Below, piece after piece: positions 987 to 44,971 of a DNA stretch of 64,000 bases. A model generated the notes under the pieces. It saw only the letters and a program-made list of their open reading frames with translations, was not told the DNA's origin and made no database searches. The translations under genes were made by a program, and so were the position numbers. This stretch comes from Escherichia phage Ptacy1479, in the sequence record PQ863256.1; one strand, written 5' to 3'. Every line of letters starts with the position of its first letter. The stretch's first letter is position 1.

Positions 987-1007
987 GCCTCCGTTGGGAG
1001 GCTTTTT
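987..1007 (+). terminator. intrinsic terminator-like hairpin (GCCTCC-GTTG-GGAGGC + TTTTT)
   Basis: perfect 6-bp GC stem plus T-run read directly. Confidence 0.55.
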
Positions 1008-1037
1008 GTGTTGTTGATAATGTAGAAGGAGTATAAA

Positions 1038-7860: not shown

Positions 7861-8639
7861 CAGTAGATACCGTAACTGTTAGTCCTTCGTCGGTTGCAAG
7901 CCTTCCGACGGGGGCTACTCAGCAGTTTACAGCTACAGCAGAAATGAGCGACGGCTCCACAAGCACAACTGGATTTAATTGGTCCGTTGAAGGCGGTGGG
8001 GCTGTTTCTGTTTCTGGGCTATACACTGCACCGAGTGCGTCGCAAGAAACCCCAGCAACTATTACGGCTACTAAGGGTGGTAAAACAGGTACTGCTACAG
8101 TTCAGTCTATTTTTGAACCTGCTACTATCGAAGCCAAAGCTAACATTACTGGTAAAGTTGGTGGAAGCACTACAGCCTTTACTACAATGTTCACAGCAAC
8201 TAACTCCTCAGCAGAAGATTATACTTTTGTTGTAGCTCCAACGTCAGCAGGAACTGTTAGCGCAGCAGGAGTTTTAACTTTAAGTAACAGTGCAACAGGT
8301 ACAGTCACTGTTAAGGCTACCCATAAAACTCAGTCAGATGTTGAAGCCACTGTAACCTTTACAGGTGTTGTTGCTAAAGCTACCATCACAGCTAAAACTG
8401 TAGAGGCTAAAGTTGGTGGTGATGTAGTACCTTTTGCTGATATGTTTACGAGTAATAATGCTGCAACTAACTTCAACTATGTAGTAACTCCAACTGCTGC
8501 TGGTACAGTGGATAGCTCTGGTAATCTCACTCTTGCAGATGATCCGGGTGCTGAAACTGTTACAGTTAAGGCAACACATAAAACTCAAACTACAGTTACA
8601 GCTACTTGTTCTATTCCTGCTACTCCTAAAGCAGTATAA
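7845..8639 (+). CDS. Ig-like (BIG2-type) domain extension, predicted to be made only as a -1 frameshift fusion to the major capsid protein
   Basis: -1 frame has no ATG/GTG/TTG before 7944, yet the Ig-like domain begins upstream of that Met (VDTVTVSPSSVASLPTGATQQFTATAE). Confidence 0.6.
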   Translation, partial: GSGGVTVDTVTVSPSSVASLPTGATQQFTATAEMSDGSTSTTGFNWSVEGGGAVSVSGLYTAPSASQETPATITATKGGKTGTATVQSIFEPATIEAKANITGKVGGSTTAFTTMFTATNSSAEDYTFVVAPTSAGTVSAAGVLTLSNSATGTVTVKATHKTQSDVEATVTFTGVVAKATITAKTVEAKVGGDVVPFADMFTSNNAATNFNYVVTPTAAGTVDSSGNLTLADDPGAETVTVKATHKTQTTVTATCSIPATPKAV

Positions 8640-8675
8640 TGTACAGTAACTAGTGAAGAGATTGCATAAGAATAA

Positions 8676-8704
8676 AGCCGCCTTCGGGTGGCTTTTCTTG
8701 TTTT
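8676..8704 (+). terminator. rho-independent terminator after capsid module
   Basis: AGCCGCC-TTCG-GGTGGCT followed by TTTCTTGTTTT. Confidence 0.7.
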
Positions 8705-8726: not shown

Positions 8727-8735
8727 TAATGTATA
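8727..8735 (+). promoter_or_regulatory. TAATGTATA phage promoter-like element, 33 nt upstream of ATG 8769
   Basis: exact 9-mer recurring upstream of several genes; recalled as the phiEco32-type middle/late promoter motif (unverified). Confidence 0.5.
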
Positions 8736-8768: not shown

Positions 8769-9521
8769 ATGGCAATGCCAGATGTTCAATATCCCATCAA
8801 TACCTATGGGTGGCTAAAGAAGGCCGTGGCCCTCTGGGCGGATAGGGACGATGATGAATTTGTTAATCAAATTCCAAACTTTATTAACTTTGCAGAGAAA
8901 GAGATTTACCGTAACTTACGTATTCCTCCTCTGGAAAAAGAAGTGTATCTCAGCATTAAAGACGGAGTGGCTTTTATTCCTCCGGATTATTTACAAGCTC
9001 AGTGGATGATGAGAGCTAAAGATGGATCGATATTTCAAGTAACCTCTCCAGAAGAGATCAGCTATCGAAAACAACATGGTACAATAAATCCGTCTCACTG
9101 GAACAATCAACCAGTTAACTATGCTCGTTTTGGTTCTCGCTTTTTATTCTATCCGCTGATTAATGCCGACACCCCTGTCTATCCTGATGATGGGAGTCCT
9201 GCCATTCCAGCAGAGAATTCTGTGATTCTGAGTTATTATGCAGATCCTCCAGAGTTTCATGCAGATGAAGATACTAGTGCAATATTAACCATTGCCCCAG
9301 AGCTTCTTCTATATTTTACCCTTAGACATGCATGTCTTTTTGTTCAGGATGATAATGGTGTTCAAAAATGGTCTGCGTTAGGTAAGGCTATTCTTGATGA
9401 AATGGTTGAGCAAGATAAGAAACAAGAGTACTCAGGCTCTCCTATTGCGATACCTAATAATATGACCAGACTTCAGAGTAGCCTACCAGATATTTATGGA
9501 ATACGTACCTCTAGAGTATAA
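8769..9521 (+). CDS. hypothetical virion protein (adaptor/tail candidate)
   Basis: AAGGAGG Shine-Dalgarno; 250 aa between capsid and tail fiber. Confidence 0.5.
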   Translation: MAMPDVQYPINTYGWLKKAVALWADRDDDEFVNQIPNFINFAEKEIYRNLRIPPLEKEVYLSIKDGVAFIPPDYLQAQWMMRAKDGSIFQVTSPEEISYRKQHGTINPSHWNNQPVNYARFGSRFLFYPLINADTPVYPDDGSPAIPAENSVILSYYADPPEFHADEDTSAILTIAPELLLYFTLRHACLFVQDDNGVQKWSALGKAILDEMVEQDKKQEYSGSPIAIPNNMTRLQSSLPDIYGIRTSRV

Positions 9522-24106: not shown

Positions 24107-24115
24107 TAATGTATA
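24107..24115 (+). promoter_or_regulatory. TAATGTATA promoter-like element, 38 nt upstream of ATG 24154
   Basis: exact 9-mer; the track ORF start at 24109 is the ATG inside this motif. Confidence 0.5.
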
Positions 24116-24153: not shown

Positions 24154-27100
24154 ATGGCTAACATTAAACCGTGGGAAGAAGCTTCCAAAGCTCCTGCGTA
24201 TCTGAATGCCTCTCCGGAGCAACAAGCTCAAATGAGAGAACAATATAAGGCAGCAGGTGGCTCTATTCCTGAGGAACAACCAGTAGCACAACCACAACAA
24301 GAAGAACGTGGTGCTATAGGTGAGTTTGCTCAAGGTGTGTCAAATGCTCTTCAATCTGGTGGTGCAAATATTGCAGCTAGTGCTGCTAAAGGTATTGGTG
24401 GTTTAGTTGAGATTGGTGAGAATCTAGCTGGAACACAAACTAGTTATGGTAAGCGTATCCAAGAGAACTCTCAGAACCTTCTGAAAGAGCGTATGGATAA
24501 GATTGAGGATGGGGTTGGTAAAACTGTTGGTCAGTATGCTGGCGTTGCTGGTGATATTGGTATGACTGTTGCTAACCCATTGGCTGCTGCTGCTATCATC
24601 GCAGGTCGTGAGACAGGCCGTGCATACGCAGACCAAACCCCTGAAGAGGGAGAAGATAAGTCTATTCTAGATGCGGCCTTAGTGGGTGGTGCTAACTATG
24701 CGGCTCAGAGAATCCTTCCGGGTGCTGTTGGTACGGCTGAGTCCACACTTGGACGTATTGGTCAGAACGTTGCTAGTAACGCAGTGGCTGGTGCTAAAGG
24801 TGGCGCTCTTGTCGGTGCTGCTGAAGTTCAGAACAAGTATGGCGATGATAATGATCTAGCTAAGACATTGGAAGGTGTTATCGAAGAAGGTGCTATGGGT
24901 GCTGCATTCGGTGGTGCAGTTGGTGGGGTTCATGGTTTGATTAGCCGTCCGGATTCTGCTGTCTTCAAGAATACTCCAGAGTATGCGAAGACTGATATTG
25001 CTGCTGATGATGAACTAATTCGCAGTGCTAAGAATATTGATGAATTGAAAGAAGCCTATTCTAAAGCTGAAACTGCTAACGCTGCTTCTGCTCTGAATCT
25101 TCTGGATGAGAATGGATTCCGTATTACAGATGCTGTTGCTGTAGATTCTCCTGCTGCTCAGCGTATTCTTAATACTGACCAAGCTCGTGCTGAGAAGGCT
25201 GCTTCCGTTCAGAAAGAACATTCCAACATTCCGGGCCTTAATCCTTTAGCTTCTCCTGCTAAGACTCGTGGTAAAGCCTTCGCTGATAACGAGCACAACC
25301 AGAAGCAGGCTGTTGCTATGAAGGATGCAATGGCTGATTACACCAAAGACAACACTAAAGCTCTTACGGATGTTCTAGATAACCTAGACCGTGAATTAAC
25401 ATCTCTCCGAGCTTCTGGTGATTTTACTGGTAGTCCGATTGATATTAAGAATCGTACACAAGCCGACCGTGACTTCATTGATGCTTACAAGACTTTCTAC
25501 AACGAAGCAAACAGATTCAAAGCTCGTGAAGGTGAAGACTTTAACAACTTTGTAGAGAAAGCTGCTGAACTACAGAAGATGGCTGATAATGTCTCTCCAG
25601 AGATGAAGAAAGCTATCAGTGGGTTGAAGAAACTGAAAGGTATGCCTGAAGGTTTTAATCCTATCCAAGATGCTTACACTCTGAACAATACAGCTAAGTT
25701 CATGAGCAACCAAGATCGTGGTTGGACTTCCCTGACTGATGATGGATTCCGTGAGGCTTCTTCACCTAGTCTGGTAATGAATACTCTTGGTGCTGCTAAG
25801 TATGCTCTGAATCGCTTCTCTTCTCAGCGTGCTCGCTCTCAACGTGTTAAGCAACAAGAGTCTAACAGTGAAGCTATCCGCTCTCTTGCTCGTGGTGATT
25901 TGGAAGTTGCTCGTGCTAAATCTACTGCCGAGGAAGCTCGTGCTAGGATGGAAGAAGAACCAGTTGTTGATGACATTAAATTTAAGACGCAAAATGACGT
26001 AGAAACCGAACCGGTTCGGGAGCCTTCTTCTAGTACTGTGACGGAAGAAAATCTTCCTTCTTCTGCTCCTCAAGAAACTCCTCTTACAGCTCGTGATTTA
26101 GTTGCTCAAAGACGTGCTATCCGTCAGGCTGAACAGCGTCGCGCTGAAGAAGAGGCAGCTGCTGCTCAAGAAGCTCCGGTCGAACAAGCTCCACAGGCTG
26201 AACCTCTCCCTGCTCGTAACCCTCTAGAGGAGCGTCGTGCAATGGAACAGCAACGTGCTCAAGAAGAGGCCGCACAGGCTCCAGAACCAGCCGTAGAGGA
26301 ACCAACAGTCAAAGCTGAGCCATTACCTGCTCGTGCTCCTAAAGCTCCTAAGGAAGCTGTACAGGACGTTAAACCGGCAAGTGGTGTAGAACGTTTAGCT
26401 GCTATGTCTAGTGCTGCTCGTCAGGCTACCAAAGATCGTGCAGAACGTTTTGCCCGTTCTCTGTACTCTAAGGCTGCTAAGGCTAAAGCTACTGCTGAAA
26501 ACTTCTTGGCTTATAAGGGTGATCCTAAGGAATTGATGCGTCGTATTCGTCAGGAAGACAATGCTATCAATACTGAACGTCATGAAGAAATGGCTCGTAA
26601 CCAGCTGGCTTCTCAGCAAGGTATTGCTACTGCTAAGAACAACACTGTACGAACTAATTTTGCTGAATGGGTTAAAGAACGTGGTCTGCCAGAAGACATT
26701 GCTACTAAGGCATTACGTGCTGAAGAGAAAGGTTTAGGTGGGAACGTAACTAACTTGGATAGTCTGAAACGCCGTGCTGAAAGGTTGTATCAGAAGCAGC
26801 GTGAGGATGAATTTGATAGACTGTACCAACAGGCTCTAGAAGAGAACAAAGCTTTCGATAACAAGAATGCTCCTAAACTGATTGACCAGAAGAAAGAGCT
26901 TCAGTCCGAGATTGACGCTTTGATTGATTCAGAACCTTTACGTCCTGCTCAGAAAGATGCTATGCGTAAGCTGATGAATGATTTTGTAGATGGGAAGTTT
27001 AAATCTTCAGAGAAGGCTGGTAGGGAAGAGGCTTTGGAAGTTGGTCAGATGAAGGATATTTGGGATGGGTTTATTAATACCTACAACAGAGAAGTGAATG

Positions 27101-31097: not shown

Positions 31098-32381
<1,284 letters not shown>

Positions 32382-32673: not shown

Positions 32674-33420
32674 TTAGAATGGGCTATCGTTGTCGTCTTC
32701 ATAAGTAGAAGCAGGCTCTTTATCAATCGTAGGGATTGAAGGGGTAGCTTCTTTCTGCTCTGTTTCAGAAGCACGAGTAATTTCACGACCAGCCAGAGGC
32801 ATGTTCTTAGCGTCATTAGCTTGAGTAAGCAGGTTGCGCTGGAACGGGAACATCAGTTGATAGGATGCTACGTTCTCATCGGTTTCAGCATACGGTTCGA
32901 AGAATACCAGAGGACTACGAGCTTCACCAACTGCTGCACGATATTTGGTTGGGATTGGAGAAATGGTCTTGATGGAGTTTTTAACTTCACCAGCTTTGTT
33001 AGTATAAGAGTTAACCAGAATGTTAACAGGCTGACCTAACAGAACATCCTTGAACCAAGACAGATCACCTTTCAGTGCTTGAATGCTTGGGTCAATCATC
33101 TTGCAAAGATCAAGAATACCAGAGTTCTTAGCTCGTGGGTTTACATCATAGCTCTTGAACTGGCAAGCCGGACGTGGTTCTAATGCCTTACCATCGGAAT
33201 CTTTACCAGTAGCATCAACACCAATCAGCTCGAAAGCCAAATCCATACGGAAAGCCGGATTCTTAGGGGTTACTGCTTTGGTCTTCGGGTCAATCCAAGG
33301 GTCACGATTGTGAACACCCAAACCTACTACACGAACGATACGTGCTTCGTATTCACCATCAGGGATTACATCGTAGTTGGATTTACGGGAAGCAGTTGCG
33401 ATAGTTGGAATCATAGACAT
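32674..33420 (-). CDS. single-stranded DNA-binding protein (putative)
   Basis: 248 aa; acidic C-terminal tail ending ...EDDNDSPF, typical of SSBs; own promoter and terminator. Confidence 0.5.
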   Translation of the reverse strand: MSMIPTIATASRKSNYDVIPDGEYEARIVRVVGLGVHNRDPWIDPKTKAVTPKNPAFRMDLAFELIGVDATGKDSDGKALEPRPACQFKSYDVNPRAKNSGILDLCKMIDPSIQALKGDLSWFKDVLLGQPVNILVNSYTNKAGEVKNSIKTISPIPTKYRAAVGEARSPLVFFEPYAETDENVASYQLMFPFQRNLLTQANDAKNMPLAGREITRASETEQKEATPSIPTIDKEPASTYEDDNDSPF

Positions 33421-33479
33421 ATTGTAATTTCCTTATTTAGTTTGAAAGATTGTTGCTCTCTTTGAGCGGTTATGTATAG

Positions 33480-33488
33480 TATACATTA
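33480..33488 (-). promoter_or_regulatory. TAATGTATA promoter-like element about 60 nt upstream of SSB-like gene
   Basis: exact 9-mer on - strand. Confidence 0.45.
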
Positions 33489-33551
33489 CGCTTATACCGA
33501 TAAGAGTACTATATAATATAAGTATCTTTGGTAGTAGATATAACACACTAG

Positions 33552-33560
33552 TAATGTATA
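33552..33560 (+). promoter_or_regulatory. TAATGTATA element on + strand, divergent from the 33480 element, facing a non-coding AT-rich region
   Basis: exact 9-mer; no + strand ORF downstream. Confidence 0.4.
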
Positions 33561-33836
33561 TATTGTATAGCTGATAAAGTTATTGCAGGCTTGTATATTG
33601 GGCAATTCACAGAATCCCTTGCAAGTACCGAAGGGCAGGAGCCACCTGCGAGATAAAAATAGAGAATTAAGGAATCCTTGATTTAGGTTGTAGGGACTCC
33701 TAGGGACTTTGATTCTCTAATTAAAAGAATAATAATTACTTATTACCCAAATAATTAACTAACTTACTTAAACCAAATTCAAGAATAATAGATAAAAAGA
33801 TTATTCCTAATAAAGCCAAGAAGTAAACAATATAAG
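33561..33836. other. AT-rich non-coding region with tandem TAGGGACT repeat and hairpins; candidate origin or regulatory region
   Basis: no ORF of 60 aa or more on either strand; flanked by divergent promoter-like motifs. Confidence 0.3.
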
Positions 33837-34001
33837 TTACCATTCAAGTAAACCTTTAAAATTAGATTTTTCTACTATCCTCTGATAACGAAGATTAGAA
33901 TCAGCTTGTTTCTTTAACATCTCATTATATTGATCTCTGATAGAGTCTTTATGAATTACAGGTTCTTTAAATAATGAGATCTTGTTCTTTTCTTCTTTCA
34001 T
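33837..34001 (-). CDS. small hypothetical protein (start revised to Met29)
   Basis: AGGAAGG 8 nt upstream of ATG 34001. Confidence 0.45.
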   Translation of the reverse strand: MKEEKNKISLFKEPVIHKDSIRDQYNEMLKKQADSNLRYQRIVEKSNFKGLLEW

Positions 34002-34470
34002 CGAAAACCTTCCTAATCTCTTGCAGAGAAACAGCTTTATAATTAATTTGCTCCATTGATGTACAGAAATATCTCCAATCATCAATTACATGATTATGTG
34101 TATGAGCATAAATATTAAACTTCCCTCTCATCTCATCAGAGTGAATAGGAATGTGAGTTATCCAAAACTCTTTATATTTATAATCACCAGAGATTCTACG
34201 GAAGACTTTCATCATATCAGGGAGAAGTTCTAATCTGTCATGATTTCCTAAGACCAGATGTTTCTCTCCTTTTACTTCAGCGATGATATCAAGGGCATAC
34301 TTTTCAAACACCCAATCACCAGTAAAGAAAATTTTATCACGCTTAGTTACATGATCAAATGCAGCTAGAATTGCTTTGTCATGTTCTTCGATGGTTTTAA
34401 ATTGCTTACGAAAACTACAGATGTTGCGATGGCCTAAGTGACCGTCTCCTGCAAAATAAACTTCAGCCAT
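33967..34470 (-). CDS. calcineurin-like metallophosphoesterase
   Basis: GDGHLGH, GDWV, GNHD, HTHNH motifs in order. Confidence 0.8.
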   Translation of the reverse strand: MAEVYFAGDGHLGHRNICSFRKQFKTIEEHDKAILAAFDHVTKRDKIFFTGDWVFEKYALDIIAEVKGEKHLVLGNHDRLELLPDMMKVFRRISGDYKYKEFWITHIPIHSDEMRGKFNIYAHTHNHVIDDWRYFCTSMEQINYKAVSLQEIRKVFDERRKEQDLII

Positions 34471-34479
34471 AAAGACCTC

Positions 34480-34695
34480 TTAGATAGTACACCCATCGCA
34501 AGTTAAATCACCTAGAAGGGATAGAGAAAGTAATCTGGATTGCTCATCACTGTATAATTGATCAATCTCTTCTTTAAGTTTTGCCAACTCTGTGAAATTG
34601 ATAAGTTGACCATGTTCAAGACAGTCTGTTTTTAGTATAAATAAAACTTCAGCGTCTGTTGAATCTTCACTTGAATATTTATCAATGTATTCCAT
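34480..34695 (-). CDS. hypothetical acidic protein
   Basis: TAGGAG upstream of ATG; 71 aa. Confidence 0.5.
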   Translation of the reverse strand: MEYIDKYSSEDSTDAEVLFILKTDCLEHGQLINFTELAKLKEEIDQLYSDEQSRLLSLSLLGDLTCDGCTI

Positions 34696-36317: not shown

Positions 36318-38162
36318 TTAGTGCGTATGCATCCAGTTGAGTCCAATCTGACAATCAGAGGCCAGAGGACATTCCATGTTCAAGTACTCACCCGCTTTCT
36401 TAACACAAAGCTCAGTGTGTTCTTTGAGTTTCTGTACATCATTACGATTCACTGAGAATTGGCCCTCATCATGCATATCAATTACCTTAGCACAACGAAC
36501 CCCATCCCTCTCAATCCACTTGTTTAGGAACATCATAGCATATTTCATAACAACAGCACCAGCACATTGCAGTAGAGTGTTAAGTGCTTTATGAACCATA
36601 ACCTTACCAGTGGCATCTCGTCTCATTGTAATCTTACGACCATCAACACCAATCAAGTATCCTTGAGCAGCTTTCTCTGTCATACGATCAATGAGGATTG
36701 CAATACATGGGTTCTCTGCCAAGAAACGTGCTCGCATCACTGAACCTTCTTCAGCCCCACCACCTACAATTGAACCAAGCTTAGCGTCGCCAGCACCGTA
36801 GTTGAATGCATAGATAAATGTTTTAGCGTTGTCACGAGTAGGAAGACCAGCAAGTTTCTGGTTATGGGAGTGGATATCACCTTCAAGGAGAATATCACGA
36901 TACATAATAGCAGAAGCTAAACCACGTTCTGCCAGAGCTTTCTTAGCCGGATTGTTCTCTTCAATTGCCTCAGCAAGCATATCTCTACACTCTTTAATGA
37001 GGTAGTGAGCGAGCATACGAAGTTCAAGTCCAGAACCATCATACCCTAAGAATACTTCTTTACCAGCGGGTATGTAATATTTGTAAGCACCTACAGGTTT
37101 GTCTTTCTTCCTCGGCTTACCTTTCTCATAAATTACGTTAGTACCTTTTCGTATATAACAACCATCAGGAACAACGTTAGTAATAACGAAAGGACGAGAA
37201 TGATCACTGTCTGAGTTATAGTCAGACTCAAACAAACTGCGACACTCGTGACCAAACAAACCACGGGAGGGAATATTAACCACGATACGATGTTTGAATC
37301 GAAAAGTTGGCGTAGCGCAGCTGTTAGCTTCTGCCGAAAGTTTACCATCTTCGCGTTCCTTTGCTATGAGTCCACTGATAAGACCTAGCCTGTGAGCCGC
37401 TACAACGCGTCTCTTAAGCAAACTTCCGACACTCCCTAGATCACCCCCTAGCCCCTCTTCAAGAGTCTCCTCGAGGTTTGTAGGAGCTGTAGGCCACTTA
37501 TTTGATGTGGCTAGTGCTTTCTTAATCTCATCAAACGTTACAGGATTACGGCGATTAGGGTTCAATCCCAAACCAAATACGTAAGCCTTCATATAGTTCT
37601 TAGTTTTAAACCTGAAATGCTTTTCTAAGAACTTCTTAATATCAGCGTCAACCATCTCGGCTGTCTGCTTTTGCTTAGCATTGCCTCTCATCCAAGCAGT
37701 ATACCATGCTTGGTATGTTCCATACTTTCGCATATCTTTCTTAATTTCGAAAGTATTCCAAGGTTTCTTAGATACGTTAAACTCTGGAGGAAGAAAGCCC
37801 TCATCCATAAGAGCCTCTTTAACTCGTGCATCTTTCGATGGGTCAAAGTCTACGTATTCGACACAGGTGAATGCTCCACCAATATCTTCTCTCTTCAGCC
37901 CAACCCTATCACAATAGGCTTGAGGCCACTTCTGTAAAGCTCCAGACTTCTTAAACGGCTTCATGTAAGTAGAGCCATCTAATCTCATCTTAGGTAAGAG
38001 AGGAATCAACTCTCTGTCAATATTAACAATAATCTCTTTAAGGAGGTGAACATACCACCGAGCATTTCTTCGGTTGAAACTCACTCCGTGCTTTGCTTGC
38101 TTAGAGATTATATCAGCGACAGTCATCTCTGTCAAAAATGGAAGAGCGTCCGGGTTGCTCAC
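36318..38162 (-). CDS. DNA polymerase, family A, polymerase domain only
   Basis: motif A DGSGLELRMLAHY, motif B RDNAKTFIYAFNYG, motif C VIDMHDEGQF; no exonuclease motifs in this ORF. Confidence 0.8.
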   Translation of the reverse strand: MSNPDALPFLTEMTVADIISKQAKHGVSFNRRNARWYVHLLKEIIVNIDRELIPLLPKMRLDGSTYMKPFKKSGALQKWPQAYCDRVGLKREDIGGAFTCVEYVDFDPSKDARVKEALMDEGFLPPEFNVSKKPWNTFEIKKDMRKYGTYQAWYTAWMRGNAKQKQTAEMVDADIKKFLEKHFRFKTKNYMKAYVFGLGLNPNRRNPVTFDEIKKALATSNKWPTAPTNLEETLEEGLGGDLGSVGSLLKRRVVAAHRLGLISGLIAKEREDGKLSAEANSCATPTFRFKHRIVVNIPSRGLFGHECRSLFESDYNSDSDHSRPFVITNVVPDGCYIRKGTNVIYEKGKPRKKDKPVGAYKYYIPAGKEVFLGYDGSGLELRMLAHYLIKECRDMLAEAIEENNPAKKALAERGLASAIMYRDILLEGDIHSHNQKLAGLPTRDNAKTFIYAFNYGAGDAKLGSIVGGGAEEGSVMRARFLAENPCIAILIDRMTEKAAQGYLIGVDGRKITMRRDATGKVMVHKALNTLLQCAGAVVMKYAMMFLNKWIERDGVRCAKVIDMHDEGQFSVNRNDVQKLKEHTELCVKKAGEYLNMECPLASDCQIGLNWMHTH

Positions 38163-39833: not shown

Positions 39834-39869
39834 TTAAAACTCCTTAATATATCAGTGTACACTAAGGAG

Positions 39870-39878
39870 TATACATTA
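39870..39878 (-). promoter_or_regulatory. TAATGTATA promoter-like element, 36 nt upstream of ATG 39833
   Basis: exact 9-mer on - strand. Confidence 0.5.
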
Positions 39879-44962: not shown

Positions 44963-44971
44963 TATACATTT
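44963..44971 (-). promoter_or_regulatory. AAATGTATA variant of the promoter-like element
   Basis: 8/9 match to TAATGTATA, similar spacing to ATG 44923. Confidence 0.35.

Follow-up and report, generated by a model that had tools for sequence, protein, structure and literature searches.

The 9-mer TAATGTATA occurs at 8727-8735 (+) of the window, that is, of the whole 64-kb stretch of DNA analysed in this article, and returns at several other places on both strands. This raises the question of what the element is, by which protein it is read, and whether all of its copies serve the same purpose. An earlier note, made from the letters alone, had taken the copies for middle/late promoters that depend on a phage sigma factor. 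Written generally as [T/A]AATGTA[T/G]A, the 9-mer is identified here with near certainty as the phiEco32-type promoter element, six times by homology and a seventh time most likely as well.

Placement of the 9-mer and its phiEco32 counterparts

Exact copies of TAATGTATA are found five times in the window and nowhere else in it, namely at 8727-8735 (+), 24107-24115 (+), 33480-33488 (-), 33552-33560 (+), and 39870-39878 (-), just where the earlier note had placed them. The variant it had given for 44963-44971 (-), with eight of nine letters in common, is present as well and reads AAATGTATA. The element TAATGTAGA at 1018-1026 (+), termed P6, was overlooked there, so that the earlier set comprised five of the six published promoters. 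All seven promoter-type sites lie inside the 6.55% of the window left uncovered by dominant-strand ORFs, which agrees with the intergenic placement originally described. At the five gene-proximal sites listed before, the end of the motif is separated from the start codon by 33, 41, 59, 36, and 39 nt, within the 33-60 nt that had been claimed. The copy at 33552-33560 (+) was said to face non-coding DNA, and a downstream ORF is indeed absent. One gene length has to be revised: the site at 24107 does precede a long gene, but this gene comprises 1472 aa instead of 1473 aa and begins with a Shine-Dalgarno-preceded ATG at 24157. An ATG within the 9-mer itself creates a spurious ORF of 1488 aa.

Six phi32_gp36-dependent promoters have been described for phiEco32; they have one common element, tAATGTAtA, and transcription starts 6-8 bp downstream of it (PMC8948821; Lavysh et al. 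2022, in part a summary of Pavlova et al. 2012 on gp36-dependent promoters). The consensus given in the earlier note is right: the supplementary table of that article gives P6 as TAATGTAgA, P13, P26, P40, and P58 as TAATGTATA, and P68 as aAATGTATA (PMC8948821, Table S3). The same six promoters are given there for NJ01, ECBP2, KBNP1711, SU10, and 172-1, and Table S2 of the SU10 study contains the same six. When positions 1-50000 of phiEco32 were scanned for the motif, it was located at 1677, 9101, and 26014 and, on the minus strand, at 36640, 42945, and 46870. The flanks of these positions are identical or nearly identical to those at 1018, 8727, 24107, 33488, 39878, and 44971 of the window. 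Hence, six window sites correspond one-to-one to the late promoters P6, P13, and P26 and the middle promoters P40, P58, and P68.

The P6-type late element TAATGTAGA (1018-1026 (+), occupying -15 to -7) has its counterpart at phiEco32 1677-1685, before phi32_6 (Table S3), and is followed by an ATG at 1038, 11 nt past the motif. The P13-type late element at 8727-8735 (+) matches phiEco32 9101, upstream of phi32_13; the gene behind it (8769-9521) belongs by its Pfam match (PF24175) to the SU10 adaptor family. The P26-type late element at 24107-24115 (+) matches phiEco32 26014, upstream of phi32_26. On the minus strand, the P40-type middle element (33480-33488; phiEco32 36640, upstream of phi32_40) precedes an SSB-like gene at 32674-33420, and the P58-type middle element (39870-39878; phiEco32 42945) stands at the position upstream of phi32_58. 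The P68-type middle element AAATGTATA (44963-44971; phiEco32 46870, before phi32_68) represents the promoter that was used for cryo-EM. Orthology with phiEco32 thus supports six of the window sites as promoters. Transcription starts 6-8 nt past these 9-mers, dependence on gp36, and middle/late kinetics would carry over from the phiEco32 experiments. The six sites being positional orthologues of gp36 promoters, and gp36 and gp79 both being encoded in the window, the initial reading as phage-sigma middle/late promoters holds. The six-promoter finding is already published, close relatives included; since the 9-mer is the published gp36 element, the finding is correct but ordinary.

Some local arrangements around these sites can be added. 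Intrinsic terminators at 987-1002 (+) and 8674-8695 (+) stand directly 5' of P6 and P13 and form terminator-promoter cassettes with them. At P6 (1018-1040 (+)), the Shine-Dalgarno sequence AGGAG occupies -6 to -2, and phiEco32 is arranged alike (1677/1697). A start 6-8 nt downstream of the motif would therefore leave a leader of only ~3-5 nt devoid of a Shine-Dalgarno sequence, meaning a near-leaderless gene 6 mRNA. In the P58 leader (39840-39869 (-)), CTCCTTA at -6 to +1 is a perfect inverted repeat of TAAGGAG, the Shine-Dalgarno sequence found 16 nt farther on. In read-through RNA, this Shine-Dalgarno sequence could be masked, and RNA started at P58 would be free of the 5' arm. A weaker form of this repeat is seen at P13, with TTCTTTG facing CAAGGAG.

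Reading of the element by gp36 and the -35 region

Over a 12-kb slice of the window, DNA identity is 96-97% with the Escherichia phages WFI101126, Ptacy1532, and SU10 and 93% with NJ01, and the region 33400-33900 is 97% identical to phiEco32. The window is that of a phiEco32-like Kuravirus of the subfamily Gordonclarkvirinae. The ORF at 31477-32121 (-), for which a sigma factor had been proposed, gives only a weak Pfam match to Sigma70_r2 (18.3 bits, under the 24-bit cutoff) and no region 4 match. At 214 of 214 residues, however, it is identical to chain F of PDB 9M7Y and is thus the gp36 of the solved gp79-RNAP-gp36-P68 open complex, for which sigma2-like and sigma4-like folds were reported (PMC12276001). 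The gp79 gene is located at 50939-51187 (-), and all 82 residues of its product match chain G of the same entry (E 1e-51). This product also shows weak PDB sequence matches to TAL-effector repeats (3ugm_A, E 1.4e-8); no single stretch passes alone, and the effect may be compositional. A tblastn search with gp36 of the phage collection found this sigma solely in ~100 Escherichia and Shigella phages; it was missing from the Klebsiella phages that had matched the 12-kb query.

The open complex of RNAP, gp36, and gp79 on P68 was solved at 3.4 Å (PDB 9M7Y; Xu et al. 2025, PMC12276001). Therein, the N-terminal domain of gp36 reads A-14, A-13, T-12, and G-11, the bubble opens from -11, and the C-terminal domain contacts the -35 region at G-37 and A-34. 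Region 4 of the host sigma is displaced by gp79, which also stabilises the C-terminal domain of gp36, inhibits sigma70 transcription, and co-activates gp36. In vitro, the gp36 holoenzyme transcribes P26, and gp79 stimulates P26 4-fold and P68 3-fold (PMC12276001). In the phage of the window, whose proteins are identical or near-identical, gp36 would likewise join the host RNA polymerase core, as is established in phiEco32. Its N-terminal domain would recognise the same four bases with DNA opening from -11, its C-terminal domain would touch -37 and -34, and transcription would start ~7 nt past the 9-mer. By evicting host sigma region 4 and stabilising gp36, gp79 would bring about the switch from early to middle/late phage transcription. 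Judged by homology, the plus-strand copies would serve as promoters for the orthologues of genes 6, 13, and 26, which are late and concerned with the virion and packaging, and the minus-strand copies those of genes 40, 58, and 68, which are middle and on the replication side.

Because gp36 reads A-14 to G-11 in the published numbering, the 9-mer comes to lie at -15 to -7. The gp36 promoters are not purely single-element, the C-terminal domain reading -37G and -34A (PMC12276001), and the window sites show the corresponding letters. T-38, R-37, R-36, and A-34 are found in seven of seven; the purine at -37 is G in P6, P68, and the seventh site. The composite T-R-R-N-A-N18-N-AATGTA-N-A matches exactly the seven sites and leaves out all seven further occurrences of AATGTAnA, although the T-R-R-N-A pattern, save for -37 and -34, is post hoc, being derived from the same seven sites. 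These other occurrences (8637, 17600, 12267, 18603, 31256, 47717, and 54227) are all without the -35 pattern and all coding, except for that at 8637, which overlaps a stop codon. The latter, TAATGTACA at 8637-8645 (+), overlaps the stop of a gene whose last position is 8639 and lies 90 nt 5' of P13; it has no -38 to -34 pattern and is missing from phiEco32, whose gene 12 differs.

Longer stretches of the -35 region are common to pairs of promoters. TAAGACCTA occupies -38 to -30 of both P13 (8704-8712 (+)) and P26 (24084-24092 (+)). TTGGTAGTAGATAT occupies -39 to -26 of P68 (44982-44995 (-)), where it contains the gp36-contacted -37G and -34A, and is identical at the seventh site (33528-33541 (+)); these are its only two exact copies in the window, each 10 nt upstream of a 9-mer. 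That TAAGACCTA of P13/P26 differs from TTGGTAGTAGATAT of P68/seventh site suggests -35 subclasses. Within IMG/VR, TAAGACCTA-N14-TAATGTATA is present twice in four of five phiEco32-like genomes, once in NJ01, and in no other virus. The P68-type composite is present twice per phiEco32-like genome, and it has a few chance matches inside the genes of unrelated viruses. At -38 to -30, TAAGACCTA is also kept in ECBP2, KBNP1711, phiEco32, and a metagenomic relative.

Two further explanations of the recurrence have to be weighed. In an A+T-rich genome, a 9-mer such as this might return by chance, and sequences with at most one mismatch to TAATGTATA are indeed no more numerous than expected (18 observed, 18.7 expected), so that overall enrichment is absent and the signal comes solely from the exact and near-exact intergenic copies. 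For the exact copies, the count against a shuffled background that the earlier note had proposed gives a different picture: 100 dinucleotide shuffles of the window contain 0.62 copies on average and three at most, and none of them reaches the five that are observed. The same note had held that equal frequency in coding DNA would speak against promoters; the exact copies are all non-coding and fall within the 6.55% mentioned above. Moreover, all sites occupy orthologous positions in phiEco32. The six gene-proximal ones are found in six phages of the phiEco32 subgroup (PMC8948821, Table S3), the P40/seventh locus was checked in ~25 relatives, and the composites of P13, P26, and P68 are found in 4-5 IMG/VR genomes. 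Chance recurrence is refuted by exact-copy counts, placement, and conservation, and its probability is negligible. It is also very improbable that the 9-mers are host sigma70 promoters or the sites of another regulator instead of gp36 promoters. The SU10 authors did take TTGGTA...TATATA at P68 as a good -35/-10 pair, and in a simple scan sigma70-like matches at 9/12 positions overlap the seventh site and P6, yet such matches are no commoner than in shuffled sequence. Furthermore, gp36-dependent transcription from P26 and P68 was demonstrated in vitro, and the P68-gp36 structure shows base-specific AATG contacts (PMC12276001), the gp36 of this phage being identical.

The copy without a gene and the conserved block behind it

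The seventh site, an exact TAATGTATA at 33552-33560 (+), is divergent from P40, from which it is 64 bp apart on the opposite strand, and no ORF lies downstream. The same site exists in phiEco32 at 36704, and it is missing from the published promoter lists in Table S3 of PMC8948821 and Table S2 of the SU10 study. Among 25 relatives, 24 have kept it. The 18 phage genomes examined, which represent three genera, all contain it, as do one contig from IMG/VR and four of the five locus-spanning metagenomic contigs. The genera Kuravirus, Suseptimavirus, and Nieuwekanaalvirus have the site together with its -35 region, and the spacer diverges; the core GGTAGTAGATA is invariably placed 11 nt upstream of the 9-mer, and the spacer and flanks vary. 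The one metagenomic relative that departs from this, ERZ1034915 NODE-75, has TAATATATA at the site, with G-11, a base read by gp36, changed to A. Its ES17-type context CTATAATGTATA also holds a perfect sigma70 -10 hexamer, TATAAT. Among the features of the promoter class, a position upstream of an orthologous gene is lacking at the seventh site, since it faces no gene. Judged by both of its elements, it is most likely a gp36 promoter of P68 type that fires away from P40. As six promoters were published although phiEco32 has this seventh match, it may have been tested there and been silent. A terminator scan of 33000-34600 revealed no canonical terminator downstream of the site, and a literature search for phiEco32 antisense RNA or a Kuravirus transcriptome yielded nothing relevant.

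Directly behind the seventh site lies a conserved non-coding block at 33567-33730 (+), a candidate transcript of ~160 nt by alignments, folds, and pair counts. Across its 102-nt 3' part (33627-33728), identity stays at 92-99% in phages in which it falls to 83-87% in the neighbouring gene 40 and to 44-82% in the inter-promoter spacer. The block is predicted to fold into three parts, namely a 5' hairpin, a variable module enclosed by a stem, and, on the 3' side, a long hairpin. In the 5' hairpin, two pairs are changed on both sides (nine cells), which none of 500 shuffles reaches; the remaining helices are uninformative on covariation because they never vary. A metagenome scan with gp36 found only relatives at 83-100% and thus no deeper covariation data. 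The plus strand folds at -42.7 kcal/mol (z -1.8) and the minus strand at -32.9 kcal/mol (z -0.6), and several G.U pairs, including one from a lineage-specific A-to-G change in XT18, fit the plus strand only. The variable module has two unrelated forms, both closed by an invariant UUGCAGG/CCUGCGA stem. It spans 33584-33626, between an invariant TTGCA and ACCG(A/G)AAGGG. Type A (~40 nt) is found in this window and in phiEco32, and type B (~65 nt, with a 7-bp hairpin of its own) in MN05, ES17, and ECBP2. Which of the two types a phage has depends neither on its 5' hairpin variant nor on its genus.

A coding role for the block was rejected, since every frame contains stops, an ATG is missing, and relatives differ by 1-nt indels. 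Rfam gave no match at E≤1 on either strand of 33300-34200, and ARAGORN found no tRNA or tmRNA in the same interval. Neither did a blastn search of 5,426 E. coli genomes with the block find a match; hence, it is neither a mimic of a host RNA nor host-derived. The long hairpin at 33659-33728 is not an intrinsic terminator in the scan of 33000-34600, its stem being long and A+U-rich, and a U-rich tail follows it on the minus strand only. A direct repeat, TAGGGACT-CC-TAGGGACT, is contained in the block at 33691-33708 (+). ECBP2-type phages have a shorter form of each copy, with TTGAGGACT in place of TTGTAGGGACT and CTAGGACT in place of CTAGGGACT, and so retain an AGGACT repeat. Beyond the block, A+T-rich DNA at 33736-33843 (-) encodes, in some relatives too, a hydrophobic ORF of 35 aa that is the orthologue of phi32_41. 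This segment is cleanly deleted in ECBP2, TH42, EK010, Paul, Bas86, Bas88, and XT18.

Taken from sequence comparison, the seventh copy would give rise to a short structured RNA from near 33567. That the site is a functional gp36 promoter beyond the published six, serving a structured RNA of ~160 nt that has a swappable module A/B and is shared by Kuravirus, Suseptimavirus, and Nieuwekanaalvirus, is proposed tentatively, as a reading that may well prove wrong. The role of such an RNA may be regulatory, anti-host, or replication-priming.

Two other readings compete for the same locus. The primary origin of T7 consists of phage promoters and an AT-rich region, and oriF and oriG of T4 consist of a middle promoter and an unwinding element. 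The seventh site and the block might likewise be a replication origin, the promoter making a primer or R-loop transcript beside an A+T-rich stretch. The promoter faces no gene, such a stretch follows at ~33730-33835, and the locus adjoins the SSB-like gene within a replication cluster that includes a T7-like DNA polymerase and a primase/helicase. The TAGGGACT-CC-TAGGGACT repeat, whose copies jointly lose a G in some relatives, would fit an origin as well. However, origins of the R-loop or T7 type do not need a near-invariant structured segment of 100 nt, ECBP2, TH42, EK010, and Paul have lost most of the AT-rich stretch, and GC skew merely tracks gene orientation, all of which makes an origin rather unlikely. 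Alternatively, the block might serve the minus strand as a terminator or RNase processing site that ends transcripts of gene 41 and beyond, the plus-strand 9-mer being incidental or weakly used; this would explain why gene 40 needs a promoter of its own. On the minus strand, ATTTTTAT comes after the long stem AGAGAAT...ATTCTCT, the upstream A-tract and downstream U-rich tail resemble a bidirectional terminator, and terminators also precede P6 and P13. Against this stand the empty terminator scan, the poorer folding of that strand (by the energies given above), and the wobble pairs, XT18 A-to-G change included, which become A.C mismatches on it. Conservation of both promoter elements of the plus-strand site in 24 of 25 relatives would also be left unexplained, and a minus-strand role is accordingly held to be improbable.

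Comparison with known systems

With respect to the six sites, the window and phiEco32 represent the same system in sister phages: the consensus, the six positions, the sigma factor, gp79, and the -37 purine and -34 adenine are the same, and there is no difference. Only the seventh site is outside the published lists. T4 late promoters use gp55 and gp33 and the element TATAAATA, and T4 middle promoters rely on sigma appropriation by AsiA and MotA. In T4 as in the phiEco32 type, the host RNAP is redirected by a phage factor to a short element of the -10 type, and a small protein removes region 4 of the host sigma and doubles as co-activator. Unlike in T4, gp36 replaces the host sigma completely and brings a domain for reading the -35 region, and gp79 is unrelated to AsiA. 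No coupling to a sliding clamp is known for the gp36 system, again in contrast to T4. The late promoters of Salmonella phage 7-11 and Cronobacter phage GAP52 resemble those of the window in that a distantly related phage sigma directs the host RNAP, and they occupy equivalent genome positions (PMC8948821). They differ in being bipartite (GTAAtg-N16-aCTA) and read by the gp47 sigma, which is ~15% identical to gp36, and in that a gp79 homologue and a middle class are missing from these phages (PMC8948821). For the seventh site, the primary origin of T7, oriF/oriG of T4, and phage small RNAs offer the likeness of a phage-specific promoter that faces conserved non-coding DNA; the block itself has no sequence or Rfam similarity to described RNAs.

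By means of the six sites, the late and middle operons of this phage can be annotated by transfer from phiEco32, which serves as a structural model of how a sigma factor is replaced. As the result shows, a phage promoter class already in the literature can be recovered from raw sequence. The seventh, gene-less copy and its conserved block are a modest lead: if the site does drive a non-coding transcript through gp36, or does act as an origin promoter, the expression map of phiEco32 would gain a missing element.
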